A DNA stretch of 44,710 nt. Source: a virus. Taxonomy: Duplodnaviria > Caudoviricetes. Position numbers and translations under genes: made by a program. The notes under the pieces are model-generated. The model saw only the letters and a program-made list of their open reading frames with translations. It was not told the DNA's origin and did no database searches. The stretch is from positions 1-44,710 of the IMG/VR virus record IMGVR_UViG_3300024254_000012. The stretch is one strand, 5' to 3'. Of the stretch, positions 1,317-44,710 are shown piece by piece (within the stretch, counting starts at the first letter, position 1; each line of letters starts with the position of its first letter).

Positions 1317-1391
1317 CGGAAGGCTTTCGGGGTGGTGAGGTGGTATGGGCAATGCGGAGCGAAGTCCGCGCGGGGAACGAGGCGATGGAGA

Positions 1392-6834: not shown

Positions 6835-7001
6835 GCGACGTCGAACGCGAGATGTACCTGCGGGAGATCCGACGTCTCGACGCCGAGCGCACGCGCCTGC
6901 GTGCCGTACTCGAGCAGCTCGACAAGCGGGAGTCGCTGGGCCTGGAACCTCATGCGTTGATCAGAGCAGCGCTCGACCAGCAGGAGTCCGCCAGTGGCTG
7001 A
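6831..7001 (+). CDS. Small coiled-coil protein (56 aa)
   Basis: Hand-translated MSDVEREMYLREIRRLDAERTRLRAVLEQL...; GTGA overlap. Confidence 0.55.
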   Translation: MSDVEREMYLREIRRLDAERTRLRAVLEQLDKRESLGLEPHALIRAALDQQESASG

Positions 7002-8019
7002 CGGCACCGGCATCTCCTGGACGGACGCCACGTGGAATCCAGTGCGTGGCTGCTCTCGCATGAGCGAGGGGTGTCGCAACTGCTATGCGGAGCGCGTCGC
7101 GGCGCGGTTCTCGGATCCGGGTATGCCGTACCACGGGCTCGCGCGGCGCGTGCTCAAGACTGCCGGCGCGTCCCAGCCGCGGTGGACCGGAGACGTTCGC
7201 ATGGTGCACGAGCATCTCGCCGATCCACTGCGGTGGAGGAAGCCACGGCGGATCTTCGTCAACTCGATGTCCGACGTGTTCCACGAGAAACTGACGAACG
7301 AGCAGATCGCCGCCGTGTTCGGCGTGATGGCGGCCGCGCCGCAGCACACGTTCCAGGTGCTGACAAAGCGCGCGAAGCGGATGCGCGAGTGGTTCGAGTG
7401 GATGTCGCTCGAGGAGAACTTCTCGCCGAACGCGACCATGCACGTCGAGGCAGCACCCGACATCGACGATGACGACGACAACACGATCTGTGAGCGCATT
7501 CTCGATGCGGACTGGCCGCTGCCCAACGTCTGGCTAGGCGTCAGCGTCGAGAGCCAGACCGCCGCTGACGAGCGTATCCCCGAGCTGCTCGCCACGCCGG
7601 CGGCGGTTCGCTTCCTGTCGTGCGAGCCGCTTATCGAGCGAGTAAACCTATGTCACCTCGACAACGATGCCGTTGGCGGCGAGTGGTGCCAGGTAAACGG
7701 GCTTACCGGCGAGCAGACCGATATGGGGCGCCCGTGCCCAAGTCTCGTCAACCGCATCGACTGGGTAATCGCCGGATGCGAGTCCGGGCCCGGCGCGCGA
7801 CCATGCGACGTCGACTGGCTTCGTTCGCTGCGCGATCAGTGCACTGCGGCGCACGTACCCTTCTTCCTGAAGCAGGCGGTCGAGCAGGCCGTCGAACGAG
7901 CTGCTTCGATCGATGCCATCGTGATGGGCACCGGATCGAAGCGCAAGGGCTGCGGTCTCATCGAACTGCCCTATCTCGACGGCGTTCAGCACGCCGACTT
8001 CCCGAGGGAGCGAGCATGA
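6994..8019 (+). CDS. DUF5131 / phage Gp37-Gp68 family protein (three-Cys, radical-SAM-like)
   Basis: ISWTDATWNPVRGCSRMSEGCRNCYA, IFVNSMSDVFH, HTFQVLTKR, NVWLGVSVE, RFLSCEPL, WVIAGCESGPGARP, PFFLKQ. Confidence 0.93.
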   Translation: MADGTGISWTDATWNPVRGCSRMSEGCRNCYAERVAARFSDPGMPYHGLARRVLKTAGASQPRWTGDVRMVHEHLADPLRWRKPRRIFVNSMSDVFHEKLTNEQIAAVFGVMAAAPQHTFQVLTKRAKRMREWFEWMSLEENFSPNATMHVEAAPDIDDDDDNTICERILDADWPLPNVWLGVSVESQTAADERIPELLATPAAVRFLSCEPLIERVNLCHLDNDAVGGEWCQVNGLTGEQTDMGRPCPSLVNRIDWVIAGCESGPGARPCDVDWLRSLRDQCTAAHVPFFLKQAVEQAVERAASIDAIVMGTGSKRKGCGLIELPYLDGVQHADFPRERA

Positions 8020-9392: not shown

Positions 9393-9610
9393 TCGCCGGC
9401 TGCTACGACCTGCACCTCTACTGCGATGGAGTCGGATGCGTAGCCGGTGAGTACGGCTTCCGATCCGAGGGCGAGTTCACCGGAGACGAGACCGGCGCAC
9501 GTGCTCGGGCGCGAGCACGTAAACGCGGCTGGAAGTTGCTGCGAAGTGGCCATGCGCTCTGTCCGTCGTGCGTCAAGCGAGACGCGGCGATCGACCAGGA
9601 GGCCGCATGA
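9389..9610 (+). CDS. Small Zn-finger protein
   Basis: YCDGVGC...ARKRGW...LCPSC. Confidence 0.65.
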   Translation: MIAGCYDLHLYCDGVGCVAGEYGFRSEGEFTGDETGARARARARKRGWKLLRSGHALCPSCVKRDAAIDQEAA

Positions 9611-9801
9611 AAGCGCCGTCCTCCCTCGAGTCTGCGATCTACGCAGCCGCGTTCGTGGTGCTCGTCGAAGTGCACGGCCAGGACGAGGACGTCGCGATCG
9701 CACGCGCGGAGCAGATCGTTCAACTCCACCGAAAGGCCCGAGCGCGACGAGACGGGAAGAAGCGCCGATCTCAAGCTACCAGCCGGGGCGGGCGGCGGTG
9801 A
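9607..9801 (+). CDS. Small hypothetical protein
   Basis: GGAGG RBS; ATGA and GTGA overlaps. Confidence 0.55.
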   Translation: MKAPSSLESAIYAAAFVVLVEVHGQDEDVAIARAEQIVQLHRKARARRDGKKRRSQATSRGGRR

Positions 9802-10472
9802 GCACCTTCGTCAACAACGGACTCGTGACCGACGTCGGCTCGACAGGTACCGCGACGTTCAGTCCGTGTCGTCGATATCGCTACGCATTGACACGCGAGA
9901 TCGAGAAGGGGACGCGGCGTATCTGCACGTTCATCATGCTGAACCCGTCGACCGCGGATGCGTTCACCTTGGATCCGACGATCCGCCGCTGCCTTGGATT
10001 CGCGAAGCGCGAGCACTGCACCGCGCTGTGGGTCGTTAACCTGTTCGCCTGGCGCGCGACCAAGCCGAAAGATCTGGAAGGCGTTGATGACCCATACGGT
10101 CCAGAGAACGAGCATTTCATTCGTAATGCGATTCGCGGCGCGCAGCTTGTCATCGCGGCATGGGGTGCATTCAGGCCGAGGTCGCACGGCAACGCTCACA
10201 ACGTCCCGCGCACGCTCGCATGGTCGGCCAACCGCGAGTTGATGGCGCTCAAGATTAGCAACGGCAATCCTTCGCACCCGCTGTACCTCAAGGCCGACTC
10301 GCCGCTGGTCGTCTATTCGCACTGCGCCCATGTATTCGTCGGCCATGACCGACAGTGCGTGAAGTGCTTGCACGACTGCTCTCCGGCCGGGCTCGCAGCA
10401 CGTGATGCGCGAGCCGTTAGCCTGGACGGTCAGCAGACGCTCCACGAGGCGCTGCATCCGGAGGCGGGGTGA
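9798..10472 (+). CDS. DUF1643 family protein
   Basis: FSPCRRYRYALTR, FIMLNPSTADA..LDPTIRRC, VVNLFAWRAT.P, VIAAWG, PSHPLY. Confidence 0.9.
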   Translation: MSTFVNNGLVTDVGSTGTATFSPCRRYRYALTREIEKGTRRICTFIMLNPSTADAFTLDPTIRRCLGFAKREHCTALWVVNLFAWRATKPKDLEGVDDPYGPENEHFIRNAIRGAQLVIAAWGAFRPRSHGNAHNVPRTLAWSANRELMALKISNGNPSHPLYLKADSPLVVYSHCAHVFVGHDRQCVKCLHDCSPAGLAARDARAVSLDGQQTLHEALHPEAG

Positions 10473-12917: not shown

Positions 12918-13105
12918 ATGCCCTGGACGAAAGCCGACGAGCGACAGGCCGAGCGGATGGCCGACTCACTCGCACGCCGCCGCGTGATGCCACCGAAGCT
13001 CGTCCCGCCGCCCGGTTGCCCGGACGACGCTCCACCGCCTCCTGCGCCACGCGAAGCGCTCCGGCAGAACGGCGCGCGTTGGCTCGGTTCGGTCGCCGGC
13101 GCTAG
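12918..13105 (+). CDS. Small Pro-rich protein (about 62 aa; needs one added base near 13067)
   Basis: TATCCT lies 6 nt before the ATG. Restoring CAG(G)AA gives ...EALRQERRALARFGRRR*, which ends tail-to-tail with the endolysin. Confidence 0.4.
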
Positions 13106-13671
13106 CTCTGCGCCCACACGTTCACGTACGGTTGCGGATCGACCGGCCAGTCGCCGACGTTCGACTTCCCATCGGGAAGCCACACCTCGAAGTGCAGGTG
13201 ACGCAGGTGCGGATCGTTGCTCGGATCGCCGCCCATCGTGCCGAGCACGTCGCCGGCCTGGACCTCGTCACCGTGCTGCCAGCCGCGCGCGAACGCGATC
13301 ATGTGCTGGTAGAACGTCAGCATCCCGACACCGCCGACCTTGCCGTGGTCGAGCTCGATGCTGAGCCCGAGCGCGGTGCGCTTCGCCGCCCAGATCTTGC
13401 CCGGGCCGGCGGCGCGCACGAGCGTGCCGGGCCACGTGATCCAGCCCGGGTTGCCGCCGTGCTTCGGGATCGCGACGTCGGTCGCCGGACCCGTCGGATC
13501 GGTCGGCACGCGCGGGAACATCAGGTCGAGACCGAGGTGCGTCGCGTAGTTCAGCGCGCCGCTCGGAAGGTAGCGGTTGCCGCCTTCGAACTCGTGCGAG
13601 ACGACGGGCTTGCGACCGTTCGTGATCGGCACTGGCCAGACCCAGCCAGCGAAGTTGGTTGCGTCGATCAT
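13102..13671 (-). CDS. M23 family peptidase, probable endolysin
   Basis: WVWPVP, HLGLDL (HxxxD), VRAAGPGKI, TFYQHM, VQAGDVLGTMG, HLHFEV (HxH); GGAG RBS. Confidence 0.9.
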   Translation of the reverse strand: MIDATNFAGWVWPVPITNGRKPVVSHEFEGGNRYLPSGALNYATHLGLDLMFPRVPTDPTGPATDVAIPKHGGNPGWITWPGTLVRAAGPGKIWAAKRTALGLSIELDHGKVGGVGMLTFYQHMIAFARGWQHGDEVQAGDVLGTMGGDPSNDPHLRHLHFEVWLPDGKSNVGDWPVDPQPYVNVWAQS

Positions 13672-13895
13672 TCTCCGTATGCCTCCAGTTCGAGCCATTC
13701 GTGAAAGCTGCACGTCGTGGTCGCGCAGCGGAACGCCTCGAGGAGACGTCCGGCACTGATCGTGCCGATGAGCTCGTCGATGCCACCGCACCCCGGACAG
13801 CGCAGCGCCGGGCGGCCACTCGCAGTCTCGAGCGTGTACTCGCCGGGCTCGAGTGCGGCGACCGGACCGAGGTTGCGTGCGAGACGGAGCGCCAA
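13668..13895 (-). CDS. Small Zn-ribbon protein
   Basis: CPGCG...C....CSFH; coupled to the endolysin by ATGA. Confidence 0.55.
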   Translation of the reverse strand: MALRLARNLGPVAALEPGEYTLETASGRPALRCPGCGGIDELIGTISAGRLLEAFRCATTTCSFHEWLELEAYGE

Positions 13896-13964
13896 CTACT
13901 GCGCTCCGAGGAGCCAGCCGACGAAAGCCAGCACGGCAGCGAGTGCGGCGAAGAAGCGGATCAC
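13896..13964 (-). CDS. 22-aa single-TM peptide
   Basis: MIRFFAALAAVLAFVGWLLGAQ exactly fills the gap between neighbours, with a GTGA overlap. Confidence 0.4.
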   Translation of the reverse strand: MIRFFAALAAVLAFVGWLLGAQ

Positions 13965-14650
13965 GACGCGATCGCCGGCGACGAGCGTCGCACGCCTCTG
14001 CTGAGACCGAGCTCGGCAACGCGTCGGCGATACGAGCGCTGCTCGCCGAGCTGCGTCCAGCCCTTGATGGCGTCGTACACCTGCGCGTAGCCGCCCGGGC
14101 GCACCTCGAACGGCTTCGTCTGCAGGCCGAGGTAGTCGAACGTCACGCCCTCGAGGTCCTTGGGCGGTTCGAAGTTCGTCGGCAGATTGAAGTTGCTGAC
14201 GGTCACGCCGTCGATCTTGTAGGTGTCGGCCTCGACCTGGTCGCATGCCTCGAGAGCGGCGATACGGCCGTCGTCGAGCTGCACCAGGCGCCGGAGGTAC
14301 GGGTCGGCGAGAGCTTCGAGGATCTCGTGGCTAGCGCAGCTCGACCACTCGGAGCCATCCTCGAGACACAGCTCGGGGAACACGTAGAGGATCGGACAGC
14401 CGTCCTCGGTCTCGTCGTGATAGCCGAGCGCGCCTTCGATCGTCGGGACCTTGCGGAGCTCGAGCCGCCACTCGCCGGCGACCGATATGGTGACGCCGTG
14501 CACGACCGCGAGCTCGCCGGCGCCCCACCACGGCGCGAAGTCCTCGCGCACCTGCCGCTGCAGCGCAGCCGCGATCTCCTGGATGTCGCCGAGCGGTATG
14601 CCGCAGTCGACGTCGACAATCGCGATCGACGGGTTCTCGAGTCCCTTCAC
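13961..14650 (-). CDS. Putative zinc metallopeptidase-like protein (HExxE)
   Basis: ALGYHD, ASHEILEALADP, LEACDQVE, VSNF; the GTG start overlaps the upstream stop. Confidence 0.65.
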   Translation of the reverse strand: MKGLENPSIAIVDVDCGIPLGDIQEIAAALQRQVREDFAPWWGAGELAVVHGVTISVAGEWRLELRKVPTIEGALGYHDETEDGCPILYVFPELCLEDGSEWSSCASHEILEALADPYLRRLVQLDDGRIAALEACDQVEADTYKIDGVTVSNFNLPTNFEPPKDLEGVTFDYLGLQTKPFEVRPGGYAQVYDAIKGWTQLGEQRSYRRRVAELGLSRGVRRSSPAIAS

Positions 14651-33090: not shown

Positions 33091-33522
33091 TCAGGGCTTC
33101 GTGGTGTCGTAGCCCTTCAGCGAGATCACGATCAGGTCGTTCACGCCTGGATCGGTCAGTGTCCCGGCCGGGGTGTAGATCCGCAACGTAACCACGCGAG
33201 TCGCGGGCACGATGCTCGAGATGATCGCGTAGAGCGCTGTGGTCGGTGAACCACCGCCGCTCATCACCGTCACTCCAACGGGCACAACGCTCGCCAACTG
33301 GTGGGCGTACGTGACCGTGATGATCCCGGTGCTGGAGTGCGTCGGTGCTCCGGCCGTAGACTTGTCGACCCCGTTCGCGCCGAGAGGGAACGTCGACACC
33401 GCCGCGGACACGGGTCCATCGGCAGGAATCGTGGGCGCGCTCGACGTGTTCCCAAGCACCGCCACGTCGAAGAAGACGGTGCTGTGTGGGATCGCCTTGG
33501 CTGGATTGGCTCCTCGGTTCAT
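33091..33522 (-). CDS. Small virion structural protein
   Basis: AAGGAG RBS; beta-rich sequence (STGIITVTY). Confidence 0.7.
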   Translation of the reverse strand: MNRGANPAKAIPHSTVFFDVAVLGNTSSAPTIPADGPVSAAVSTFPLGANGVDKSTAGAPTHSSTGIITVTYAHQLASVVPVGVTVMSGGGSPTTALYAIISSIVPATRVVTLRIYTPAGTLTDPGVNDLIVISLKGYDTTKP

Positions 33523-33530
33523 GTGGCTCC

Positions 33531-34322
33531 TTACGAGAGCGTCGCGGTTCCGGACCCCGCGGTGAAGACCACCGCCTGCCACGCCGCCCCGCCGTCCCAG
33601 AACAGGTCGAGCGTGGTCGTGGTGTCGGTGATGTTGGCGTACGACGTCGCTGCAGCGCCGGCCGCGGTCTTGTAGGCACCGGCGAGATCACCGACCGGCA
33701 GAATGGCCGCGGTGGTCACGTCGATGTGGAGCTGCTGCCCCGGGAACCGCCCGTTGGGCAGCGCGTGGGTCAGCGTGCCGTGAACCGTGCCGGTGACCGA
33801 AAGGTCCCATGCGCGGTTCATGACCATCCCGGTCGTGGTCGTAGTTCCCACGACGACCGTGGTGCGTCCTGCCGGTGTCAACCGGACGATGTGCCAGGCC
33901 GAACCGGTCCACTGGAGGTGGAGCCGTTGCCCCTTCGCGTTGAACACGAACGTGGCGTTGACGCCCCCACCGGCCGTATCCATGGTCGCGACCGTCAACG
34001 TCCCGATGGGCGTTGATGCGGCCGTGATCTCCTCGAAGATGTGCTCCTGCCCGGTCACGGTGCCGTCGGCGAGCGAGTACGCCTTCGTCCCCGTCGTGGA
34101 CAGTTGGGTGAAGAGCGTGGTCAGCGTTGCGGCCCCGCTCGTGATGATCTCGACCGGCGTGCCGGTGCTGGGCGCGCCGATGGTGTCGAGCGCCGCAGCG
34201 TGCTCGTTGAGGTTGGCGATCGTCTGCGTGATGAACGCATTGTTCGGATCACTGACGATGGCCACCGGCGGCGTGCTCGCCTGCGGCTTGAAGATGTTCG
34301 TATCGATCGTTGCGCGGGTCAC
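33531..34322 (-). CDS. Head decoration / head-fibre-like protein
   Basis: GTG overlaps the capsid stop. Thr-rich, with two similar modules (LADGTVTGQ...LQWTGSAW and LPNGRFPGQ...LFWDGGAAW). Confidence 0.65.
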   Translation of the reverse strand: MTRATIDTNIFKPQASTPPVAIVSDPNNAFITQTIANLNEHAAALDTIGAPSTGTPVEIITSGAATLTTLFTQLSTTGTKAYSLADGTVTGQEHIFEEITAASTPIGTLTVATMDTAGGGVNATFVFNAKGQRLHLQWTGSAWHIVRLTPAGRTTVVVGTTTTTGMVMNRAWDLSVTGTVHGTLTHALPNGRFPGQQLHIDVTTAAILPVGDLAGAYKTAAGAAATSYANITDTTTTLDLFWDGGAAWQAVVFTAGSGTATLS

Positions 34323-35565
34323 GGCAGGATCCCCACGACGTTCCAGCCCGGGCCCTTGTTGGACACGTTGGCGTACTCGCCGATGCGCGCCTCGATGGCG
34401 TCGGCGTTCTCCGAGACCTTCAGGATCGACCCGGTTCGCTTCTGCAGGAACATCGGCGCGGTGCCGGCCGAGAACAGCGTCCACGTGTCGAGCTGGAGCC
34501 CGTACGTGTGCTTCTGCGGGCAGACGCGGTCGGTGACGATGGTGACGTCGCGCCCGTTGAGCGAGACGTTCCAGCCCTTGTAGCCGACCTCGGCGTCGCC
34601 GTCGTAGTCTTGGGCCTTGATGATGACCCACTTGCCTTCGAGCTGCTTCGTCAGGTCCGCCGTCGCCAGCGGGTGCATGACGATCACGTCGAGCATGGCG
34701 CCGAACTGATCGGCCTTCGCCATCATGTCGATCAGGACCTCGTGGACGGGCGCGCCCGAATTCGAGGCGTCGACGCGGAGGCCGCCGAGCATCTCGGGCT
34801 CGATCGAGCGGTCCTGGCCGTAAAACGTGGTCGCGCCGGGCGCCGCATCGGGCACCCAGTCGCTGAACCCGGAGATCGCCGCGCCGAAGTCGCCGGCGAG
34901 GACAGGTAGTCGTTCTGGGCGATCGTCGTGATTCCCGTCGACAGGTTCGCGGTGAACGTGATCGTACCCGCCGAGCGCTGGACGCTCGCGACCGTGAGAG
35001 ACCCGGTCTCGAGCGAACCGCTCGTGCCATCGGTCGTCGCTGCCTTCGCGACGTCGCCCTTGACCCACGCCCACGCGTCGGACGGATCCTTGAGCGTCGC
35101 GACCGTGGTCGCGAGGTTCGAGTTGGTGATCTGGCCCGCCGCGCCGCCGCTGTTGCGGAACAGGCGGAAGTTGAGGTAGTTCGCTTCGGCCTCGATGCCG
35201 CGATCGAGCTCGTCGATCATGTCCTCGAACGCGTCCTCGGCGCCGGTCTCGGTCGCCTCGAGAAGCTCGGTCTGCATCTTCGCGAGCCGGTAGTGGCTCT
35301 TGCGCGTGACCGTGAACACGCCGAAACCGGACGCGTTGTTGGTCGCCGCCATCGCGGTGCCGAAGTCAGACGAACCACCGCCCGGATACGAGATCCGGAT
35401 CGGCTGCGTCCATGAACGACCGCCGCCGGTCGTGGTGGTGCGCTTGTTCTTCTTGCTCAGCAGCCCGAACGTGGTGTTCTGCTGCGACGCGAGGTTGAGG
35501 AGGGGACCGGCCGCGTAGTGCTGCTTGAGCACTGCGTCGGCAGTTGTCAGGGTATCGCCAGCCAT
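34319..35565 (-). CDS. Major capsid protein (about 415 aa; one base missing near 34903 splits it into two ORFs)
   Basis: Follows the scaffold and has an AAGGA RBS. ORF 34732-35565 (…AQNDYL) joins ORF 34319-35074 (VLAGDFGAAISG…). The span is 1247 nt, one short of a multiple of 3. Confidence 0.85.
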
Positions 35566-35713
35566 GGTGAACGGATTCCTTGTCGTCTTTCGACGACGAT
35601 TCAGAGGGACGTACGGAACGTCGCGTCTGAGTGCGGAACCGCTACCTGGGCGGATCGACCTGGTGCGCTCTTAGCTTGACAATCACGCTATTCGATTGGC
35701 GGCGTGAACGCAA
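35566..35713 (-). promoter_or_regulatory. Capsid promoter and structured 5' leader
   Basis: TTGCGT (35713-35708)-N17-TAGCGT (35690-35685). Hairpins at 35601-35630 and GTCGTC-GAAA-GACGAC (35582-35597) sit next to the RBS. Confidence 0.55.
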
Positions 35714-35719
35714 GCGGGT

Positions 35720-37063
35720 CTATTCCTGCTTGCCCGCGATCATCGTGCGGAACGCCGCCTTGGTCGCTTCGACGTGCTTGTCGCGACTCCACTTGTTCGG
35801 CGACTGCGGGACGGTGGGCGCCTTCGGCGGAACCGGTGGAGCGGGTGGCGTCGTCACCGGTTTCGCTGCGGGTGGTGCGGGTGGCTTCGCGGCCACCGGA
35901 TCGGCGCCGAGCAGCGGCTTCCGCTTGTCGTAGTACTTCCGCGCGCTCTCGGCGAGGTAGTCGTTCGCGCGCTGACTCGCCTCCTGCCACGACAGCTGGG
36001 TTCCGTCCTTGGTGACCGCTGCGCGGATCACGTCAACGATGATTTTCCCGGGCTCGTCTTCGGCCGCGAGCCATGGATATGCCTTCGCCGTCGCAGAGAC
36101 CGCCGGCTTGCCCTCGGCATCGTTCGCCGGCGCGAACTGCTGCGACAGCACGGTCGCCGCCTTCGTCCATTCCTGCTCGACACGCTCGGCCTCGGCCTTC
36201 TCGGTCGCAGCGGCACGCTCCTTCTCGATCTGCGCGGCTGCGGCGGCTTCCTTGCGCGTCTGGATCGTCTTGTGGGTGCGGACGATCTTCTTGGCCTGCG
36301 CCGCGTCGAGCTTCACCCGCACGTTCTCGGGCAGCGGCACACCGAGCACGTCCGACGAGAGCATCGTGATGAAGTCCGAGACCTCGCTCTTGAACTCGTC
36401 GTCGGTGGCGAACTTCTCACCGCGCATCGCCTCGAGCCAGTTGCGATAGGCCGCCGGCGGCGAGTCGATGTACGCCTCGAGCGAGTGTGTGTCGGGCAAC
36501 GACGGCGCTGCTGGTTCGGCTGCCTTGCGCTGCTTCTCGGCCTCGGCCTTCTCGGTAGCACGCTCGGCGGCGATCTGCTCTCGCTCGGCCTTCAGCTGCT
36601 GGACGAGCTGGCGAACCTCGGGATCGAGCGATGGCGCCGGCGGTGTGCCGGCGACTGGCTTGGGCACCTCGGCCGTTGCTGGCCTGGGCGCAACCGGATC
36701 GGCGCCAGCAATCTTCGCGGCCGCCGCATCGGCCGTGGCCGCGAGCTCGGCGACCTTGGCGGCTGGTGCTTCAGGGTCGAGCTCGTCGGCTTCGCTCGGC
36801 GCCGCGGGCGCCGCGGGCTCTTTCTTGCTCGCGAGGATCGCCTCGGCGAACGCCTTGCGCGCCTGCTGTGTGCGCGCGGTCGACCGCGGCTTGTGGAGCA
36901 GCGGCGCGTCTGTGACGGAGCTGCTGTCGATGCCGCCCTGTTTGGCTGCGTCCTTCGGGCTGTCGTCGTCGGTCGGGATCACACCCGGCGCGTCGGCCGG
37001 ACCGGATCCGCTGTCGCCTTCTACGTACTCATCATCGTCCGCCATTACACGGTCTTCGCTCAT
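35720..37063 (-). CDS. Capsid scaffolding protein
   Basis: Acidic, Ala/Pro-rich coiled-coil protein between portal and capsid, with a short basic C-terminal helix. Confidence 0.75.
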   Translation of the reverse strand: MSEDRVMADDDEYVEGDSGSGPADAPGVIPTDDDSPKDAAKQGGIDSSSVTDAPLLHKPRSTARTQQARKAFAEAILASKKEPAAPAAPSEADELDPEAPAAKVAELAATADAAAAKIAGADPVAPRPATAEVPKPVAGTPPAPSLDPEVRQLVQQLKAEREQIAAERATEKAEAEKQRKAAEPAAPSLPDTHSLEAYIDSPPAAYRNWLEAMRGEKFATDDEFKSEVSDFITMLSSDVLGVPLPENVRVKLDAAQAKKIVRTHKTIQTRKEAAAAAQIEKERAAATEKAEAERVEQEWTKAATVLSQQFAPANDAEGKPAVSATAKAYPWLAAEDEPGKIIVDVIRAAVTKDGTQLSWQEASQRANDYLAESARKYYDKRKPLLGADPVAAKPPAPPAAKPVTTPPAPPVPPKAPTVPQSPNKWSRDKHVEATKAAFRTMIAGKQE

Positions 37064-37254
37064 GGGGTCACCTGTTCCTGGTCCTGGTTGAATTCGGCCG
37101 CGTCGTGCTCGATCACCTGATCACGACGCCACGGCTTCGGGATCGCGTTGGCGACGCAAAGCCAGAGGTTCTTGTCTTGCTCGACCGCGTAGACGCGTCG
37201 GCCGGCACAGCGCGGGCACGCGTCACCGAGACGAAAGCGGGAGACGTCGATCAC
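37060..37254 (-). CDS. Small hypothetical protein (CPRC)
   Basis: MIDVSRFRLGDACPRCAG...; coupled to the scaffold by ATGA. Confidence 0.5.
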   Translation of the reverse strand: MIDVSRFRLGDACPRCAGRRVYAVEQDKNLWLCVANAIPKPWRRDQVIEHDAAEFNQDQEQVTP

Positions 37255-37264
37255 GGCGCTCGAT

Positions 37265-40012
37265 TCATTTGGTGGCGATGACCGTTGGAGAAAGCGGTTG
37301 GATCGATCGTCTGGGCTCGTACTCTCGGAGCTCGGCGTCGTCCACGATCCCTGGATCGGTCCCCATCGGAGCCGGCACAACTGCCCGGCCTTGGGCATAC
37401 AACGGAGGCTGCGGTGCGACGTAGGGTCCGGCAGGCTGCGGCGGTACGAGCCGATCCAAGAGATGCGGTTGTCGTGCGTCCATCGATCGGATCTGGTCGG
37501 CCAACAGCATCCCAGGACCGCCGCTCGGAAGGAGCGGTGGCGGTGCTGCAGCGAACTGCGCCTGACGCATCCGCGTCACCGGACCCAGCGGATCGCCCGC
37601 GTTGACGCTCGAGATCGCATCGACGCCGCCGGGCATCGCGACCGGAGGAGCTCCGTACGGAGCGGCCGCCGCCATCGGCGCGTGGAGTCCTTGTTCGAAT
37701 CCTTGCTGGAAGCCCGCCGGGAACTGCACGGGCGCGCCACCGGACGCCTCGTACTGGTGCGCGGCCGCGATCACCGACTTGCTGTTCGGATCGCTGTGCG
37801 CCAGGTAGAAGTCGGCGTGTCGATTCGCGAGCTCGGGCGAGTACCCGTACTTGCTCTGGAGGTAGTTCGCCACCGTGCCGTGCGCCTGACCGATCGGCAC
37901 CACGACCTCGGGGCCCTTCTCGCCGATCAGCGCCACGGTCGGCTTGCTCACCACGCCGCCGTCGCCGAACGCCGGCATGCCGCCTGGTCCCGCGCCCTGC
38001 GGTGGCGCTCCTGGTGGTGCCCCGCCTGGACCCGGCGGTGGCCCACCGTCGGGCCCGAGCAGCTGCGCTGCGTTGCCCTGCGCGACGATGTTGTTCTGCT
38101 GCGCGCCGGCGAGCGACGGTGCTCCTGCCTTCGCGATCGCGTCGATCCGTTTGCACTCGGCGATGAAGTCGCGGAAGCGCTGGCAGATGACGTCGCTGGC
38201 CTTCTTCGACTTTGCTTCCTCGAGCTCGCCGAGCGCCAGGAGCTTGCCGAGCGCCACGTTCATCTCCGGATCCGGCATGCACTCGATGAGCGGCACCTTC
38301 GGATTCGACAGGTCCGACAGGCACTGCTCGATGCGGTGCACCGGTCCGAGGATCCCGCGGTTAGCCCGCGCGATGTCGGGCTCCTCGAACATCGCCGCGG
38401 AGAGCGACGGGTCAGGGATGAGGCCAGCCTTCGCCGCCTCGTTGACCTCGTTGAGCTTGCCGCCGCGGGCGCCGGTGATGAAGTTCTCGGGCTCGAGCGT
38501 CAAGTGGTAGTCGCCGCCATCGACGTCGACGTCGGGCCACTCGTTCTCGCGGATCCACGCGGCGAGCTCGTCCTTCTTGATCGCCGGGGGCTGCTCGTCG
38601 AACATCTTCTCGAGCTTGCCGTTCGCCTCGTCGTGCATCATCCGCGCGCCGTCGACGTGACGGAGGCCGACCTGCACGCGCCACTGCTGGTAGCCGCTCT
38701 CGACGTGCGCGAATCGATCGGACTGCTGATCGTCCATCGTGTCGAGCGCCTTGCCGCTCGGCGTACCGGGCAGGCTCGCCTTGGCCTGCGATGCCCAGCT
38801 CGAGATGCCGCTGGTCGCGTCCATCACCTCGAGCATCTGGAACGCGATGCTCCACGCCTGCTTGCTGACCGGATCGGCGGCGATGTACCGGGGCTCGGCT
38901 CCGTCGTGTTCGATCACCGCGGGGTGCCGCGCCTTCAGGTGGTGCTTGTTCGCGCCGCCCTGGCGGGGCTGGAAAACCTTGAGCTGACTGCCGTAGTGAA
39001 TCGCCTCGCGCGCATCCGAGAGGATGTCGTTAACCCAGCCTTGCGCCTCGGACTGCTCGTAAACGAGGCCCGTTCCGCGGCCGACACCGCGCGTCGGCGG
39101 CGACCAGTACACCGGCACGAGCGGATCGCGCGGGCACGTCCATGGCGCGCGCGCGATCGTCTTGTTGCGCAGGCACACGATCCACTGGCCGTCCTTCGCC
39201 GTCGGCGAGCTCGGCGGGTGCCAGCTCTCCGCGACCTCGACCATGTCGGCGAGGTTCGGGCCGACGTACGTGTAGCTCATCCACGCGTCGACGCGATTGA
39301 ACTGCGGCGCCGCGAGGATCGCCTCCTTCATCGCGGGGAACCTGGCGATCAGCGTGTCACGGCTTTCGGGCCGGACATGCGCGCGCTGGGTCAGCAGGCT
39401 GTAGAGCGCCTCGCGGTGATCGTAGACGACCTCATAGGCCGGGACGCGGCGGAACTCGGTGTCGCCGCCCACCCGCTCGATCTTGCCGTACGCGGTGCCC
39501 CGGATGATGAAGTCGCGGACGACGAGCGGCGCCGCGAGCTCCATATCGCCAGAGCCCATCTTGCGCCGCAGCACCCGCGACTGCTCGCGCGCGAACCGCG
39601 CCTCGGTGTAGTCGGCGTCGTCGGCGCTGATCACCGGCATCGAGCGGACCTTGGTCAGCCGCGCCGTGCCGGTGTCGACGAGCGCCTTGATCTTGTTGAT
39701 CGGGTTGCGACCGCCGATGCCGCCGGTCCAGCGGCCGTTCGCGTTGAGTCGGCCGGCGGCGCTGATCGGCGTGTCACTGTAGATCGCCTCGGACACCAGG
39801 TCGCCGATCGCGTCGCCCGACCACGTCGTGCGCTGGCGATCGACCCACTGCCACAGCGTCGCGCGAGCCGCGTCACCACCGCCTTGCGCCAGGGCGAGCC
39901 ACCATTTGAGGTACTTGACCTCGTCGCGCTGTCGCGCCCGCTTGGGCTTGACCTCGTCGTAGTCGCGGACGTTTCCGCCGCTGCGAGCGTCGACGACCTT
40001 ACGGCGTGCCAC
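37265..40012 (-). CDS. Portal protein with a long C-terminal extension
   Basis: Lies between terL and scaffold; NKIKALVDT..ARL, RDFIIRGTAYGKI, VEVAESWH, GRGTGL, SGISSW....SG.AL. The start is uncertain (40012 or 40021). Confidence 0.85.
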   Translation of the reverse strand: MARRKVVDARSGGNVRDYDEVKPKRARQRDEVKYLKWWLALAQGGGDAARATLWQWVDRQRTTWSGDAIGDLVSEAIYSDTPISAAGRLNANGRWTGGIGGRNPINKIKALVDTGTARLTKVRSMPVISADDADYTEARFAREQSRVLRRKMGSGDMELAAPLVVRDFIIRGTAYGKIERVGGDTEFRRVPAYEVVYDHREALYSLLTQRAHVRPESRDTLIARFPAMKEAILAAPQFNRVDAWMSYTYVGPNLADMVEVAESWHPPSSPTAKDGQWIVCLRNKTIARAPWTCPRDPLVPVYWSPPTRGVGRGTGLVYEQSEAQGWVNDILSDAREAIHYGSQLKVFQPRQGGANKHHLKARHPAVIEHDGAEPRYIAADPVSKQAWSIAFQMLEVMDATSGISSWASQAKASLPGTPSGKALDTMDDQQSDRFAHVESGYQQWRVQVGLRHVDGARMMHDEANGKLEKMFDEQPPAIKKDELAAWIRENEWPDVDVDGGDYHLTLEPENFITGARGGKLNEVNEAAKAGLIPDPSLSAAMFEEPDIARANRGILGPVHRIEQCLSDLSNPKVPLIECMPDPEMNVALGKLLALGELEEAKSKKASDVICQRFRDFIAECKRIDAIAKAGAPSLAGAQQNNIVAQGNAAQLLGPDGGPPPGPGGAPPGAPPQGAGPGGMPAFGDGGVVSKPTVALIGEKGPEVVVPIGQAHGTVANYLQSKYGYSPELANRHADFYLAHSDPNSKSVIAAAHQYEASGGAPVQFPAGFQQGFEQGLHAPMAAAAPYGAPPVAMPGGVDAISSVNAGDPLGPVTRMRQAQFAAAPPPLLPSGGPGMLLADQIRSMDARQPHLLDRLVPPQPAGPYVAPQPPLYAQGRAVVPAPMGTDPGIVDDAELREYEPRRSIQPLSPTVIATK

Positions 40013-40087
40013 GACCAGCACCGGCGGGGTGCTGGGTCGACGAGATCGAACGAATCACGATGCGGAGCGTGGTCCCTGGCATTGGCA

Positions 40088-40360
40088 TCAATTCCCCTCC
40101 GGGTTGACGTCACCGCGCGCGACCCGTTCGACGTACGCGTCGAGCAGCGCGCCCTCTTCGAGCGTCACGCCGAGGAGGTTGCGAACACAGACCTCGGCAT
40201 CCTGCCCGTTCGTGAACGAGCCGTAGCACTTACCATTGGCCCACACGTCGAATCGGTGCATGCCGAAGTACTGCCGCACGTGAAAGTTTCGCGTGCGTAG
40301 CTCGATGCCGATGTCGATTGGGCTCCGCATCGCTTGCATCCTAGTCGACTGCTCAGCCAT
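40088..40360 (-). CDS. Hypothetical protein
   Basis: Overlaps the upstream gene by 8 nt; 90 aa. Confidence 0.55.
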   Translation of the reverse strand: MAEQSTRMQAMRSPIDIGIELRTRNFHVRQYFGMHRFDVWANGKCYGSFTNGQDAEVCVRNLLGVTLEEGALLDAYVERVARGDVNPEGN

Positions 40361-40607
40361 CGAGCAACGCTTCCTCTGGAACCGTCTCGCTCGGCTTGGC
40401 CGTGGGCTGCTTGAGCAGCTCGGCGCCGAACTTCTCATACATGGTCGGACGCGGCTCCGCGGGCTTGCGCTGCTCAGCCGCGGCGATGTCGGCCTTCGTG
40501 TCGATCACGCCGTCGAGCGTGACGTCGCCGACGGTGAGCGTCGTGTACGCGATGCCCTCCTTGCGGAGCATCAGGATGAAGTCCTGAAGCTGTTTGACGG
40601 TCACCAC
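40353..40607 (-). CDS. Small hypothetical protein upstream of the portal
   Basis: MVTVKQLQDFILMLRKEGIAYTTLTVGDV...; clear coding pattern. Confidence 0.65.
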   Translation of the reverse strand: MVTVKQLQDFILMLRKEGIAYTTLTVGDVTLDGVIDTKADIAAAEQRKPAEPRPTMYEKFGAELLKQPTAKPSETVPEEALLDG

Positions 40608-40842
40608 GTGATCTTTCTGTAGAGGTCATCTCGGCTGATCGTGAAGCTGGCGGTCGGTCTGGCCGGTGGCTGGTCCACTGGTGCCTCGACGATCCAGTAG
40701 TTATCGGTGTCGTACTTGCCTCGCGACGCGATGCAGTTCGCTTTTGTAGCCTCAGCGTTCATGGCGCTCGTGAACACCCCGACCAGCTCCTCGCCGGGCA
40801 ACAGGCGTTGCCGTCTTCGCGGAAGAGCAGCCAGACGATCAT
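40601..40842 (-). CDS. Small hypothetical protein (one base missing near 40797)
   Basis: MIVWLLFREDGNACC joins PGEELVGVFTS if CCC is read as CCCC; ATGA-coupled start. Confidence 0.55.
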
Positions 40843-41225
40843 CGTGGCACCAGAAGCGGATGTGGTCGACTCGCCAAATCGGGCGCGATCTCGTCGCTCA
40901 GTTTGTCGTGATCGGATTCGATGGGCGGCCGGGCCGCCTTTTCGGCAAGCCACGCGACAACGTCGGGCCGACTGCGCGTCGTTTCGAGCATCTCGCCGCA
41001 GATCGAACAGCAGTCGTGATCGAGCCACACCCACGGCACGCCGTAGTCGTTGCGGCAGTCGGCGTCCGTGTTGTCGAGGTGCGCTCCGATGTCGACGTGC
41101 GGGCAGGTCTCGCGCTCCCATTCGTTCTCGCGCTTCGTGTCAACCACGTACTGCTTGATGCGCGTTCCGGGTAGCGGATAGAAGTCCTTGAGCATGGCGT
41201 TCACGCTGGTGATTGTAGCCGTCAC
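40839..41225 (-). CDS. Protein with a major-capsid-like N-terminal arm and a Cys/His domain
   Basis: GTG overlaps the terL stop (GAGG RBS). MTATITSVNAMLKDFYP resembles capsid MAGDTLTTADAVLKQHYA; later CPH...CSICG. Confidence 0.65.
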   Translation of the reverse strand: MTATITSVNAMLKDFYPLPGTRIKQYVVDTKRENEWERETCPHVDIGAHLDNTDADCRNDYGVPWVWLDHDCCSICGEMLETTRSRPDVVAWLAEKAARPPIESDHDKLSDEIAPDLASRPHPLLVPR

Positions 41226-42853
41226 GCGACACCTCGCCGACGCCACGGCTGCTCGAGATCCTCGTCCAGCTCCGCCTCGAGCTCGGCGGCCTCGCGTGCG
41301 TATGCAGCTGGCGTTCCCGCCGCGGGCGGCAGCTCCTCCGGTCGAAACCGGAAGTGGTACGCACGCCGATGCCCGTAGAGCCCGGCATCGCAGCAATCGT
41401 TCGCGAGGGTCGGATCCTCGACCATGCGACCCGAGCCGTCGACGATGGTCGCCCACTGCAGCTCGCGCATCTCGGCGATCAACGGCGATCCGGATCGGAA
41501 CTTCACGCGGCGCGCGAGCACGTCGGCGTTGAACACGTTGATCGCGGTCTGCTTGTGCTGCTTCTCGGCTTCGACGATCGGCAGGCCGTAGCGATCGACC
41601 CACTCCTTGCTCCAGCCCTTGACCACCTGCTTGCCGATGCCGCCGGCGTCCGCGTCGATCGTGCCGACGGCGACATGCGCACGGATCGCCTTGAGCGCCT
41701 CGTTCTGGGCATCGCTGTCGAGCCCCGACTTCTTCCACGAGCAGACCTCGTAGAGCACCGGATCGTGCGGGTGCCACGACCACAGGACCTCGGCGAACGG
41801 ATCGTTGTAGCCGAGGTCGCACGCGAGCGCGAACAGCCCGTCGCGCCAGTCGTAGGGTAGATCCGCCAGCGCCGCGACGACGTCGACGAAGCCGTCCGGG
41901 CGAGCTCGGTGTGGCGCGTAGAACAGCTCGGCGTCGGTGAGCTTGTTGACCGCGTAGACGAAGTTGGAGTCTTCGCCGACCCACTCGGCGAACGCGGACC
42001 GCCGCATGATCGGCGAATCGAGCGGCGCGACCTCGGGGCCGCCGAGCAGCTCCTGGAGCCCGAGCACACCGGTCAGGTGCCGCGCTCCGAGGATCGCCTG
42101 AGGCATCTCGAACGGCTCGTGCGGCCCGCTGACGATCGCGTCGTGAACGCCCCACACCGTGAACCACTGGCCGTCGATGAGCTTGGCGCGACCCCAGAAC
42201 GGGTTGTCGAGCATCGTCCAGCGCTGGACCTGCCAGCCCTTCGTCTTCGAGTCCGTGCGCGTCACGTCGTAGAACAGCCCCGACATCTTGCGCTCGGCCG
42301 TGCCGGTCATCAGGAACTCGCCCTCGTAGTCGAGCAGCGCGGGCAGCATGGTCTCGACGATCGTGGTCGTGAACTTCGACGGGATCCGCTGCGCCTCGTC
42401 CCAACGCACGCGGTTCCACGGCATGCCGAGCGCCTTGCGGATCGCCGCGTCGTCGTCGACGCCGATCAGGAAGATCCAGCTGTTGATCGCGGGGAACCGG
42501 ATCGTCAGCTCGGACTCGTTAACGACCGCCATCCCGCTGTCGATCCAGCCGCGATCGCGGACGAGCGACATCATCCCGTCGCCGCGCGCGCCGTGCCACG
42601 CGAGTCGCTTGGACTCGGCCCGGGTCTCGTTGACGTAGAGGAACCGGCCGTCCTGGGTCTGTGCGGCGTGCTCGACGTCGCTCTCGTTGCCACCGCGCGT
42701 CTTGCCGGCGCGGCGCGAGCACAGCGCGGCTCGGAGCGACTTCTTGCGCGGCCGGTAGAAGTCGCGCTGCGCGTCGAAGTGGTGCGCTGTCAGCGACGCC
42801 AGGGACGCGCGTCCTGTGCGCCGGCGATAGTGCGCTTCGACGGCGGGGTTCAC
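41222..42853 (-). CDS. terL: Terminase large subunit
   Basis: Walker A CSRRAGKT, Walker B RWDEAQ, coupling motif TGT, nuclease residues ACDLGYND and NDCCDAGLY. Confidence 0.92.
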   Translation of the reverse strand: MNPAVEAHYRRRTGRASLASLTAHHFDAQRDFYRPRKKSLRAALCSRRAGKTRGGNESDVEHAAQTQDGRFLYVNETRAESKRLAWHGARGDGMMSLVRDRGWIDSGMAVVNESELTIRFPAINSWIFLIGVDDDAAIRKALGMPWNRVRWDEAQRIPSKFTTTIVETMLPALLDYEGEFLMTGTAERKMSGLFYDVTRTDSKTKGWQVQRWTMLDNPFWGRAKLIDGQWFTVWGVHDAIVSGPHEPFEMPQAILGARHLTGVLGLQELLGGPEVAPLDSPIMRRSAFAEWVGEDSNFVYAVNKLTDAELFYAPHRARPDGFVDVVAALADLPYDWRDGLFALACDLGYNDPFAEVLWSWHPHDPVLYEVCSWKKSGLDSDAQNEALKAIRAHVAVGTIDADAGGIGKQVVKGWSKEWVDRYGLPIVEAEKQHKQTAINVFNADVLARRVKFRSGSPLIAEMRELQWATIVDGSGRMVEDPTLANDCCDAGLYGHRRAYHFRFRPEELPPAAGTPAAYAREAAELEAELDEDLEQPWRRRGVA

Positions 42854-43257
42854 CGTCGCGCCTCGAGCACCCGCAGATCATTCGCCGCGTCGCTGACCGC
42901 ATGCCAATCACGCCGCCGCACTGCGGAGAGCAGGTAGGTGACGAGGGCGGCGTGATCATCTTCGAGATCGTCTCGGGCCTCGATGCAAACGTTGTCACCT
43001 TGGCACCCGGCAACGATCGCTGATGTCACGTCAGCATCGCAGTGAAGAACGCCGGTCTCGGCATCTACGCGCGTCAGTCCAAGCGATCCGTACCGAAGCG
43101 AGCCGTCGGGCGCAGCGAGCCGAATCGTGTCGCCCGCCTTGTAGTCTTGGGCGATCTCGGCGTTAGTCAGGAGCGCGATCGCGTTGCCATGGATCGCCGC
43201 GACCGTCGAGTGAAACGGTGAAGTGATCGTCCTCGGACTGTGTGCGCAGCAGCCCAT
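42850..43257 (-). CDS. Protein with a stand-alone copy of the major capsid central (insertion-like) domain
   Basis: Manual alignment with the capsid segment encoded at 34903-35100 gives 19 identities over 63 aa with one 3-aa gap. Confidence 0.7.
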   Translation of the reverse strand: MGCCAHSPRTITSPFHSTVAAIHGNAIALLTNAEIAQDYKAGDTIRLAAPDGSLRYGSLGLTRVDAETGVLHCDADVTSAIVAGCQGDNVCIEARDDLEDDHAALVTYLLSAVRRRDWHAVSDAANDLRVLEARR

Positions 43258-43258
43258 G

Positions 43259-43513
43259 CTACTTCGTCGCTTCCTCGCTGAGCCGCTTGATCGCGTCCGT
43301 GTACGCCTGCTGAGCGGCGCGGAACTCGACGTCAGCGGCCTTGACGCGGACGGCAGCGGCGCGGAACTCGACCAGGGCGTCGAGCTCGGAGCCGATGGGG
43401 GGCGCATCGCTACGGCGCTTGAGCACAAATGACGACGCCACCCTCGGATCCATCGGATCGAGGATGTCCGCCATGCTGGCATCGCTTGCCATGACGGATG
43501 GCGTGCCGGTCAC
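43259..43513 (-). CDS. Small hypothetical protein (C-terminal coiled coil)
   Basis: GTGA overlap; tight packing. Confidence 0.55.
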   Translation of the reverse strand: MTGTPSVMASDASMADILDPMDPRVASSFVLKRRSDAPPIGSELDALVEFRAAAVRVKAADVEFRAAQQAYTDAIKRLSEEATK

Positions 43514-43779
43514 GGCCGCACCGCGGGATCGATGTTGCGCCGCACCGGCTCGGCCTTCACGGCCACGTCGGGGATCCGCACTTTGTACGATATCGCCAGC
43601 GCCGACACCTCGCGCCGCACGCCATCGGCGGACGTCAGCCAGACGTCTCCGTTCTTCTGCTCCTCGCACTTGAGCAGCGGGAACTTCTCGATCGACCAGT
43701 GCGAGATCGACGACGGGTAGTTGGTGACGCCCGAGACCACGGTGACGCCGGGGAGGAAGTAGACCGCGCGGAGCTGCAT
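43510..43779 (-). CDS. Hypothetical protein
   Basis: MQLRAVYFLPGV...; ATG 2 nt after the upstream stop. Confidence 0.65.
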   Translation of the reverse strand: MQLRAVYFLPGVTVVSGVTNYPSSISHWSIEKFPLLKCEEQKNGDVWLTSADGVRREVSALAISYKVRIPDVAVKAEPVRRNIDPAVRP

Positions 43780-43781
43780 GG

Positions 43782-44168
43782 CTAGCTCTTCCCTTCGGGA
43801 TCTGCCGCCGTGTGAATCGCGAGAGCGTCGTTCGCGTCGATGTCGTAGTAGGTCTTGCCGCCGTCGTTCGAGAAGCACGACGACGAGCGCCGGTTCTGCC
43901 AGACCGGCGGATCGCCCTTGGGAGTCATGTCGGCGACGTCCACCCACTCGGCGGGGTCGCTCGTGATCGGCGTCAGTGGCTTGAACCGGAGCAGCTTCTC
44001 GAGGATCGACACGGTCATGGCCGCGGACATGCCGCTGTGGCCTTCCTCCGCGAAGACCTTGACGACCTTCATCACGCCCTCGCCGAGCATGCCCCCGTAG
44101 TCGCTGTCCTTGTCGAAGAGGCCGGCGCGGCGGAGCTCGGTCTCGGCGTGGGTGACGAGATTGCTCAT
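43782..44168 (-). CDS. Conserved-looking phage hypothetical protein
   Basis: MSNLVTHAETELRRAG...FAEEGHSGMSA...PLTPIT...EW...WQNRR.S..F; GAGG RBS. Confidence 0.8.
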   Translation of the reverse strand: MSNLVTHAETELRRAGLFDKDSDYGGMLGEGVMKVVKVFAEEGHSGMSAAMTVSILEKLLRFKPLTPITSDPAEWVDVADMTPKGDPPVWQNRRSSSCFSNDGGKTYYDIDANDALAIHTAADPEGKS

Positions 44169-44170
44169 CG

Positions 44171-44680
44171 CTAGTCCGCCTCCCTCTCGGCGGCGTCGAG
44201 GGCATCCATGCGCTCGAGCGTGTCGCCGGCGGTGTCGATGATGCCCTGCTTGCGCGCGCGCTCGACCGCGTCTTTCTGCGCGACCGCGCCGTCGCTGATC
44301 GCGTGGCTGCCGGGCTGCATCCGTAGGAGCTTGCCGTCGAGCCCGGTGAGCAGCGACTGCTCGGGCAGATTGAGCATGACGCCGAGCACGTACTGCTCGT
44401 TGAGCAAGCGCAACACCTTCTCGTTGCCGTTCTCGTCATCGAGCGGAAACTCGACGCCCTGGTTCTTGGCGAACGCGACGATATCGCCAACCTTGAGCGC
44501 GACCGGGATCAACCGGCCGTCCGCGGCGTAGCGGCCGGGGCCGACCTCGAGGACCTTGGCGTAGCGATACGGCGTCGACGCCTTCGCGACCTGGGGGATG
44601 AGCAGGCCGCCCTTGGAGACTTCGCCGAGGGCGAACTCCTCGACGACGAGGTTGTTGTGGAGCGGAACGATGCGAGTCAC
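44171..44680 (-). CDS. groES: Phage-encoded GroES/Cpn10 co-chaperonin with a C-terminal extension
   Basis: IVPLHNNLVV, SKGGLLIP mobile loop, AKVLEVGPG, LKVGDIVAF, LLNEQYVLGV. Confidence 0.9.
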   Translation of the reverse strand: MTRIVPLHNNLVVEEFALGEVSKGGLLIPQVAKASTPYRYAKVLEVGPGRYAADGRLIPVALKVGDIVAFAKNQGVEFPLDDENGNEKVLRLLNEQYVLGVMLNLPEQSLLTGLDGKLLRMQPGSHAISDGAVAQKDAVERARKQGIIDTAGDTLERMDALDAAEREAD

Positions 44681-44710
44681 GGTGTCACCTGGCTTCCTGG
44701 TTATGAGTGC

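Follow-up and report, generated by a model that had tools for sequence, protein, structure and literature searches.

Several described systems reuse phage capsid parts or interfere with virion assembly. Ccm of SaPIbov5 is described as a satellite-encoded homologue of the capsid protein that acts on the helper phage (PMC8569155, PMC5052747). Tab (PMC10884400), Rcm and CpmB (PMC12409344) are small proteins that disturb virion assembly, the last two by competing with the scaffold. Capsid homologues put to a new use (Ccm), proteins that mimic scaffold (CpmB, Rcm), blockers of assembly (Tab) and virion domains that move between proteins are already known. Here we describe two genes of a G+C-rich phage, IMG/VR record IMGVR_UViG_3300024254_000012, whose complete sequence of 44,710 bases is the stretch that was analysed (the window). 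The two genes, which we call UP (42850-43257) and DOWN (40839-41225), lie in the late operon on the minus strand and touch the terminase large-subunit gene terL on either side. As judged from sequence comparison, each belongs to a conserved family of accessory proteins assembled from parts of the capsid, and the two families are independent of each other. The literature searched (bioRxiv 10.64898/2026.06.04.730250 included), with incomplete coverage and supplements outside it, nowhere describes accessory genes that consist of capsid pieces, and the Tad3 and Thoeris texts, in their accessible parts, describe no capsid-piece decoy.

Like Ccm, UP and DOWN are capsid-derived and encoded outside the capsid gene. 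Unlike Ccm, they carry pieces of 15-85 residues on unrelated domains within the phage's own late operon; at 135 and 128 amino acids, they hold one piece each and no near full-length capsid fold. The window also differs from the satellite of Ccm in encoding its own terL, portal, scaffold-like, capsid, adaptor and tail proteins. Tab, Rcm and CpmB are unlike UP and DOWN in that they resemble scaffold or nothing, not capsid, and Tab is made constitutively from a prophage. Ig-like domains of phage virion proteins are mobile small surface domains that shuffle among unrelated proteins. The barrel of UP likewise occurs in tailspike-like and head/neck-like proteins; it has a different fold, and most of its non-capsid copies are small stand-alone or apparently non-virion proteins. 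The capsid from which the pieces come is like the P22-type coat in combining an insertion beta-barrel and an N-terminal helix within an HK97-type capsid. However, in P22 both belong to the coat protein, with the I-domain in the A-domain (residues 222-345), whereas here the barrel lies at residues ~142-225, and barrel and helix are each also encoded by genes of their own. The likeness is one of architecture and position (PMC9965877).

UP (42850..43257, minus strand, 135 amino acids) consists of a beta-barrel at residues ~17-94 and a helical hairpin at residues 98-134, with six strands and two helices, respectively, in the predicted model (mean predicted local distance difference test (pLDDT) 82). 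The barrel is homologous to the ~80-residue barrel inserted in the capsid protein at residues ~142-225, as revealed by pairwise BLASTP (E 2e-4) and by hhalign against 116 capsids (99.0%, E 4.5e-18, 82 columns). A reading of the DNA made earlier from the letters alone (the sequence-only reading) had seen a capsid piece in UP, and this was further confirmed by a reciprocal search of 1.84 billion proteins (E<=0.001) with a profile of 11 UP-family barrels and zero capsids. It matched 159 proteins. Among the 140 new ones in the 150 matches listed, 80 are full capsids, matched at residues ~135-250, and 41 are non-capsid barrel proteins of at most 300 amino acids, 31 of them of at most 170 (50%-identity clusters); the others are 4 capsid fragments, 8 longer non-capsids (one resembling an unrelated repeat protein) and 7 cases of repeat noise. 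A word-index search gave 20 homologues of UP, ten with barrel and hairpin and ten with the hairpin alone, and five further barrel-plus-hairpin homologues were found beyond these first ten (at least 10 in total before).

In fold comparison the UP barrel matches the capsids 9in6 (Z 7.7, root-mean-square deviation 3.0, 81 residues aligned) and 7qof (Z 6.9, 2.6 and 73), with which non-capsid barrels tie. The fold is generic: ATPase barrels, EF-Tu, FlgT and a tail tube score like the insertions of two solved capsids. The top structure match in the ESM Atlas was a 435-residue viral protein (TM 0.73), and the feature search there returned unnamed clusters only, at 0.90 or lower. Neither UP nor DOWN has a family in Pfam, PHROGs or PADLOC. 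The hairpin of UP (42850-42960, minus strand; loci L016-L100) is very common and has no Pfam family. It matched 159 viral loci, nearly all of the 80 kept covering only residues ~95-135, and it occurs alone or behind many unrelated N-terminal parts. The six genome loci matching UP cover the hairpin portion only, and a viral scan with one free barrel as query returned zero loci.

The sequence-only reading had taken the pieces for paralogues of this phage's own capsid, a view that we had to give up: UP scores higher against 121 of 200 other capsids than against its own, BLASTN against the own capsid gene found nothing significant (best E 0.03 for UP and 0.46 for DOWN), and free barrels group apart. 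By these comparisons UP and DOWN are not recent copies of the own capsid. In the barrel tree, a 100/99 branch separates the 38 free barrels from all capsids; the tree rests on 78 columns with long branches and an unsettled bootstrap, 1 of 123 rows was removed as too short, and the free set was gathered with its own-family profile. A cysteine motif marks 15 of the 38 free barrels and 0 of 200 capsids. With a mean identity of 0.26 against 0.39, free barrels appear from these alignments to diverge faster than capsid barrels. Five barrels inserted in virion-like proteins nest among the capsids, which suggests repeated recent transfer. Capsid-like barrels, up to three in tandem, occur in P0192, P0193, P0226, P0211, P0213, P0248, P0258 and P0272, and the hosts of inserted barrels resemble post-capsid genes, a neck-region gene and a tailspike. 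In P0271 and P0244, a free barrel is also found N-terminal to what is, by our own reading of P0271, a terminase-small-subunit-like protein and to a dATP/dGTP diphosphohydrolase N-terminal domain (PF18909).

DOWN (40839..41225, minus strand, 128 amino acids) carries the capsid N-arm helix (capsid residues ~5-19) at residues ~3-17, followed by a Cys/His domain of ~100 residues, so that in DOWN, as in UP with its hairpin, a capsid piece is fused to an unrelated domain, just as the sequence-only reading had it. Its family comprises 45 homologues of 42-65% identity, and 42 of the 46 members are 120-160 residues long. H49, C73 and C76 are invariant, C41 and C57 occur in 43 of 46, and with these five residues the ~100-residue domain is likely metal-binding. 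DOWN is under purifying selection: in ten DNA sequences, nonsynonymous differences (pN) amount to 0.35 against 0.60 for synonymous ones (pS) in the body, and to 0.44 against 0.60 over the first 13 codons. The predicted model is confident (pLDDT 94.7), with a helix at residues 5-15. Fold searches with it gave no clear match (Foldseek best E 2.2 in PDB and 0.57 in BFVD; VIA best Z 3.1), which is not proof of a new fold.

The claim that DOWN resembles a different capsid piece stands at the family level; the similarity is short. The first ~15 residues match the capsid N-arm column by column, K/R-D-x-Y/F is present in 45 of 46 members (the capsid N-arm pattern ends K-x-x-Y), and hhalign on untrimmed alignments of the DOWN family and capsid gives 71.6% (E 3.5e-5). 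In contrast, pairwise BLASTP of DOWN against capsid found nothing, the N-arm was not significant in a six-frame hidden Markov model scan (independent E value 2.8), and a shallow alignment of 8 capsid sequences gave 4% when compared with DOWN by hhalign. We further scored 1608 coding-like segments of 31 records, with reversed controls, by an N-arm position-specific scoring matrix (PSSM) of 14 columns built from 186 capsids. The top 12 comprised six DOWN homologues, five other small open reading frames (ORFs) and one terL N-terminus; a score of at least 16 was reached by 8 real and 2 reversed segments, and 34 of 46 family members lie above the control 95th percentile. Scored separately by a capsid-only PSSM, the window's DOWN reaches 20.3, a value attained by 2 of 1608 segments and 1 reversed control.

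The last ~12 residues of the DOWN family resemble capsid residues ~28-39, a weaker match than the N-arm. The best site of the corresponding PSSM falls within the last 30 residues in 36 of 46 members, 18-19 of which exceed the control 99th percentile, and hhalign gives 62% on alignments trimmed after the motif was seen; the window's DOWN retains only a four-residue remnant, too short to score. An economical reading is that DOWN would be the 5' end of a capsid gene with ~100 codons inserted after the first helix. The N-arm of DOWN is like that of its cognate capsid beyond chance (8 records, permutation p 0.003), and a Mantel test of the DOWN body against capsid was not significant (p about 0.19). 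From its sequence distribution, DOWN appears to move between phages with far-apart capsids. Relatives of DOWN or of the capsid were found neither in GTDB genomes nor in GenBank phages.

UP and DOWN do not form one system. The sequence-only reading had joined two genes and a GroES into one and had the two genes bracket terL; across the 31 records the two families co-occur in one, the window, where alone DOWN is accompanied by a free barrel. In G007 and G008 a free barrel occurs and DOWN is absent, G006 (94% complete) has neither UP nor DOWN, and in the four closest relatives that cover this part of the genome DOWN is missing from the stretch between terL and portal. The nine DOWN loci vary in position: the gene may precede GroES or terL, follow terL at a distance of one gene, sit on the opposite strand, or be 20 kb off. 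With neither the bracketing of terL nor the closeness to GroES conserved in the synteny of relatives and the families moving independently, a conserved UP-terL-DOWN module was rejected.

Profile searches of small ORFs in relatives, which the sequence-only reading had proposed, revealed a pattern wider than it had seen. In a second class of ORF, a basic, tryptophan-rich segment precedes ~40-55 capsid N-terminal residues (93.8%, E 1.7e-7, 54 columns against the capsid N-terminus); its eight loci, four of them new, lie near GroES/terL (L007:9108-9533, L010:11365-11607, L116:231-470, L109:5073-5417, L179-L181, L184). One-off N-arm fusions also occur. Various small proteins begin, or nearly begin, with the N-arm, and sequence from the capsid N-terminus turns up in no fewer than three ORF architectures that are unrelated to one another. 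Two patchwork ORFs were also observed, one joining the N-arm to the capsid's last strand (G012:7587-8204; independent E value 0.006 for the strand) and one whose barrel precedes a stretch that weakly matches the capsid segment coming next (G007:53072-54214). A borrowed capsid translation start as the entire explanation was set aside, since there is no DNA likeness at the 5' end and the second-class ORFs hold the N-arm internally.

Capsid-piece genes occur in 5 of the 7 long records from the capsid scan (G006-G012; G009 and G010 were first found via DOWN). In 15 records, 17 of 18 fragment genes lie within 6.5 kb of terL where 4.7 are expected, a distance that was chosen after the fact and a region that gathers accessory genes in general. 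Control tiles of ten other core proteins gave 52 non-member matches against 42 in reversed controls; by eye these are chance matches or distant full-length orthologues, with no comparable fragment ORFs, the control profiles holding 5-20 sequences each against 150 for capsid. Capsid specificity of the fragment genes is thus suggested, not proven. From the loci compared, the capsid-piece genes are a clade-wide habit, not a fixed module.

The major capsid protein, the source of the pieces (~415 amino acids in relatives), is encoded at 34319..35565 on the minus strand in two frames in the window, with one base missing near 34901. It is uninterrupted in one frame in five close relatives, and a contig of run X1, which may come from the same sample, has one extra base at the break and is otherwise identical over 33500-44710. 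It is therefore probable that the frameshift is an assembly slip, and the broken capsid as a biological feature was dropped, since the X1 contig carries the missing base. SU10_MCP (PF17236) matched four of eight distant capsids (E 1e-5 to 9e-3, one above the cut-off) and none of eight close ones, weak matches that would fit a distantly SU10_MCP-like capsid.

The late operon runs from GroES (44171-44680) through a Tad3 homologue (43782-44168), two small genes (43510-43779 and 43259-43513, minus strand) with no known family in Pfam or PHROGs, UP, terL (41222-42853), DOWN, three small genes, portal and a scaffold-like gene to the capsid gene, an SU10-type adaptor and tail genes. terL (41222..42853, minus strand) was identified by PHROG 2 (E 2.6e-19). 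The names portal, scaffold and capsid rest on position, size, conserved order in relatives and the weak SU10_MCP matches. terL shares 4 bases with UP on one side and 4 with DOWN on the other; the coordinates and adjacency of the sequence-only reading were thus correct. Both genes overlap their late-operon neighbours with no intergenic room, and both are placed ahead of the capsid gene; the overlap speaks against a defence made by the lysogen.

The gene at 43782..44168 (minus strand) encodes a protein of the Tad3 family, a family of type I Thoeris inhibitors (Pfam PF25185, E 3.8e-39, 133.6 bits against a cut-off of 27), and matches the solved Tad3, PDB 9b7d (E 1.2e-6). It directly follows GroES and was found in none of the other 30 records. 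The GroES gene (44171..44680, minus strand; PF00166, E 6e-15) encodes a Cpn10 protein with a C-terminal extension of ~65 residues (44171-44380) that is common to G006 and shorter in more distant relatives; in three relatives a GNAT acetyltransferase-like gene precedes it. The sequence-only reading had put GroES four genes upstream of terL; upstream it is, but four genes intervene, one of them the Tad3 homologue that had been overlooked. GroES occurs in nine records, two of which lack any fragment gene (G006, G011), and five DOWN records have no GroES match (G001, G003, G004, G005 and G013, some of them fragments). The suggested tie between GroES and the fragment genes was therefore rejected, GroES and DOWN each occurring without the other, and GroES is not part of the capsid-piece phenomenon. 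T4 gp31 is a phage-encoded co-chaperonin near head genes. The window's GroES is unlinked to the fragment genes and matches ordinary Cpn10 chains, its 18 PDB matches all being named chaperonin-10-type chains with gp31 not named among them.

What might such proteins do? The reading on which we put most weight, tentatively, is that UP and DOWN are non-activating decoys for host capsid-sensing immune proteins, acting in the late lytic phase. They would be made in that phase, shortly before the capsid, would present a capsid surface that binds a host capsid sensor, and would hold the sensor without activating it, to the benefit of the phage on defended hosts. We favour decoys because the genes behave like arms-race cargo, because they share an operon with a Tad3 homologue, and because binding without activation has a precedent in Thoeris: the Thoeris system of staphylococci responds to capsid protein, and one mutant capsid was seen to bind ThsB1 while ThsB2 is not recruited (PMC12578639). 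Also in favour are the barrel and N-arm homologies, the other architectures that share the capsid N-terminus, the lack of comparable fragments from other core proteins, the faster divergence of free barrels, the spread of DOWN across phages with distant capsids and the tracking of the cognate capsid by its N-arm. Tad3 itself is unlike UP and DOWN in that it binds ThsB, blocking its catalytic site, and is not capsid-derived (PMC13728456). UP and DOWN need not share one function. A doubtful extension of the decoy reading takes the whole changing set of capsid-fragment proteins near terL in this clade of uncultured phages (free barrels, N-arms that hold a metal-binding insert, N-arms that follow a basic helix) for pattern decoys. 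Such self-mimics of the most conserved signal of a phage would soak up capsid sensors just before capsid is made.

Several points weigh against decoys. The proposal names no specific host, sensor or binding partner. UP is no closer to its own capsid than to others, as the 121 of 200 higher scores indicate, where a tuned decoy might be expected to be closer, and the free barrels stand apart from all capsids in the tree as one old group. The cognate tracking of DOWN comes from eight pairs, three of them from one capsid clade, and a Mantel test of the DOWN N-arm against capsid was not significant (p about 0.14). Tad3 is present in 1 of 31 records, and a search of 150 of the 171 ORFs that neighbour these genes in relatives turned up no further named anti-defence family. 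The Gol peptide is reportedly a capsid piece that triggers a sensor. In the accessible literature, capsid pieces or small phage proteins trigger sensors more often than they block them, as with Gp54 and CapRel, and the surfaces sensed by Thoeris are the E-loop and the P-loop, not these pieces (PMC12578639).

It is possible, if on the unlikely side, that the pieces were exapted without mimicry, a recombination hot spot having once picked up barrel and N-terminal helix from a capsid gene, so that they would now serve as stable folds or structural parts of proteins with capsid-unrelated jobs. The free barrels forming one group with its own cysteine motif (15/38 against 0/200) would fit this, as would the generic barrel fold (ATPase barrels, FlgT, tail tube, EF-Tu), the unrelated partners of the barrel (the dGTP diphosphohydrolase N-terminal domain, the terminase-small-subunit-like protein by our reading of P0271, the hairpin), the position of the DOWN helix inside a confidently folded predicted unit (pLDDT 94.7), and a region that gathers unrelated accessory genes. 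Against such re-use, three or more unrelated ORF architectures contain sequence from the capsid N-terminus, the N-arm keeps the capsid column pattern even though it is the least constrained part of DOWN (pN 0.44 against 0.35), and the control tiles, with their shallower profiles, showed no similar pieces of terL, portal or scaffold.

An unlikely alternative is that the proteins are scaffold-binding tags or assembly modulators, in which N-arm copies would attach to the scaffold of their own phage, or to an N-arm site left vacant, to bring cargo into the procapsid or tune nucleation, while the free barrel would decorate or chaperone the shell. In P22, residues D14, E15 and E18 of the N-arm helix bind the C-terminal helices of the scaffold (PMC9965877), an analogy that is positional only. 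DOWN has an invariant Asp beside a conserved Lys, several different small proteins carry the N-arm at or near their start, and barrels are inserted in virion-like proteins in up to three copies, five of them nesting among capsids. The genes are optional, though: the closest relatives have no DOWN between terL and portal, G006 at 94% completeness lacks both, and DOWN crosses between phages with very different capsids.

Quite improbable is a role as dominant-negative inhibitors that, like Tab or Ccm, would disturb head assembly in rival relatives or satellites. The window encodes an integrase domain (integrase at 11.4-12.8 kb), from which the phage looks temperate, and a phage whose pieces match its own capsid imperfectly would be spared their effect. 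Blockers of assembly carried by prophages are known (PMC10884400), and a capsid homologue of a satellite is reported to redirect assembly (PMC8569155). However, both genes overlap late-operon neighbours and leave no gap between genes, and a scan of 39900-44710 revealed no sigma-70-like site (a weak test in G+C-rich DNA), so that their expression in a lysogen is unlikely. Neutral recombination debris of the capsid gene, allowed for by the sequence-only reading as pieces unique to this genome and decaying, is very improbable and, from the sequences, largely refuted for UP and DOWN by 45 DOWN homologues (42/46 at 120-160 residues) with invariant Cys/His residues and pN below pS (0.35 against 0.60), by at least ten barrel-plus-hairpin homologues and five more, and by the absence of any resemblance in DNA to the own capsid gene (BLASTN E 0.03 and 0.46 at best), even though the gene right after DOWN is split by a frameshift, third-position G+C is 0.71 in UP and 0.79 in DOWN against 0.84-0.96 in core genes, and some one-off N-arm ORFs in relatives may be such debris.

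The gene that follows DOWN (40601-40842, minus strand) is read in two frames, both matching one intact 88-residue protein at L005:612-878. The X1 contig carries the same sequence, and the split is therefore probably real or a shared error. The portal reading frame is ~240 residues longer (37265-38050, minus strand) than in relatives, at 918 against ~660-680 amino acids, and the extension holds a 35-residue stretch matching tape-measure/endolysin PHROGs; it may be another captured structural-gene piece or, alternatively, a read-through fusion. Elsewhere the genome encodes a pentapeptide-repeat protein (495-1352, minus strand), DUF5131 (6994-8019, plus strand), DUF1643 (9447-10472, plus strand) and an M23 peptidase (13102-14019, minus strand).

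A phage cannot easily alter its capsid protein, which more than one bacterial immune system senses. Decoys derived from the own capsid, if that is what UP and DOWN are, would be a counter-defence route not found described in the literature searched, and their pieces would be ready baits for capsid sensors; if the pattern-decoy extension is true, each fragment would mark a capsid surface read by bacterial sensors. Without a decoy function too, dozens of 'hypothetical' phage proteins gain an origin. A capsid insertion domain is seen living as an independent, fast-evolving family, DOWN suggests that an inserted domain has split a capsid N-terminus, and all of this is open to testing with small soluble proteins.

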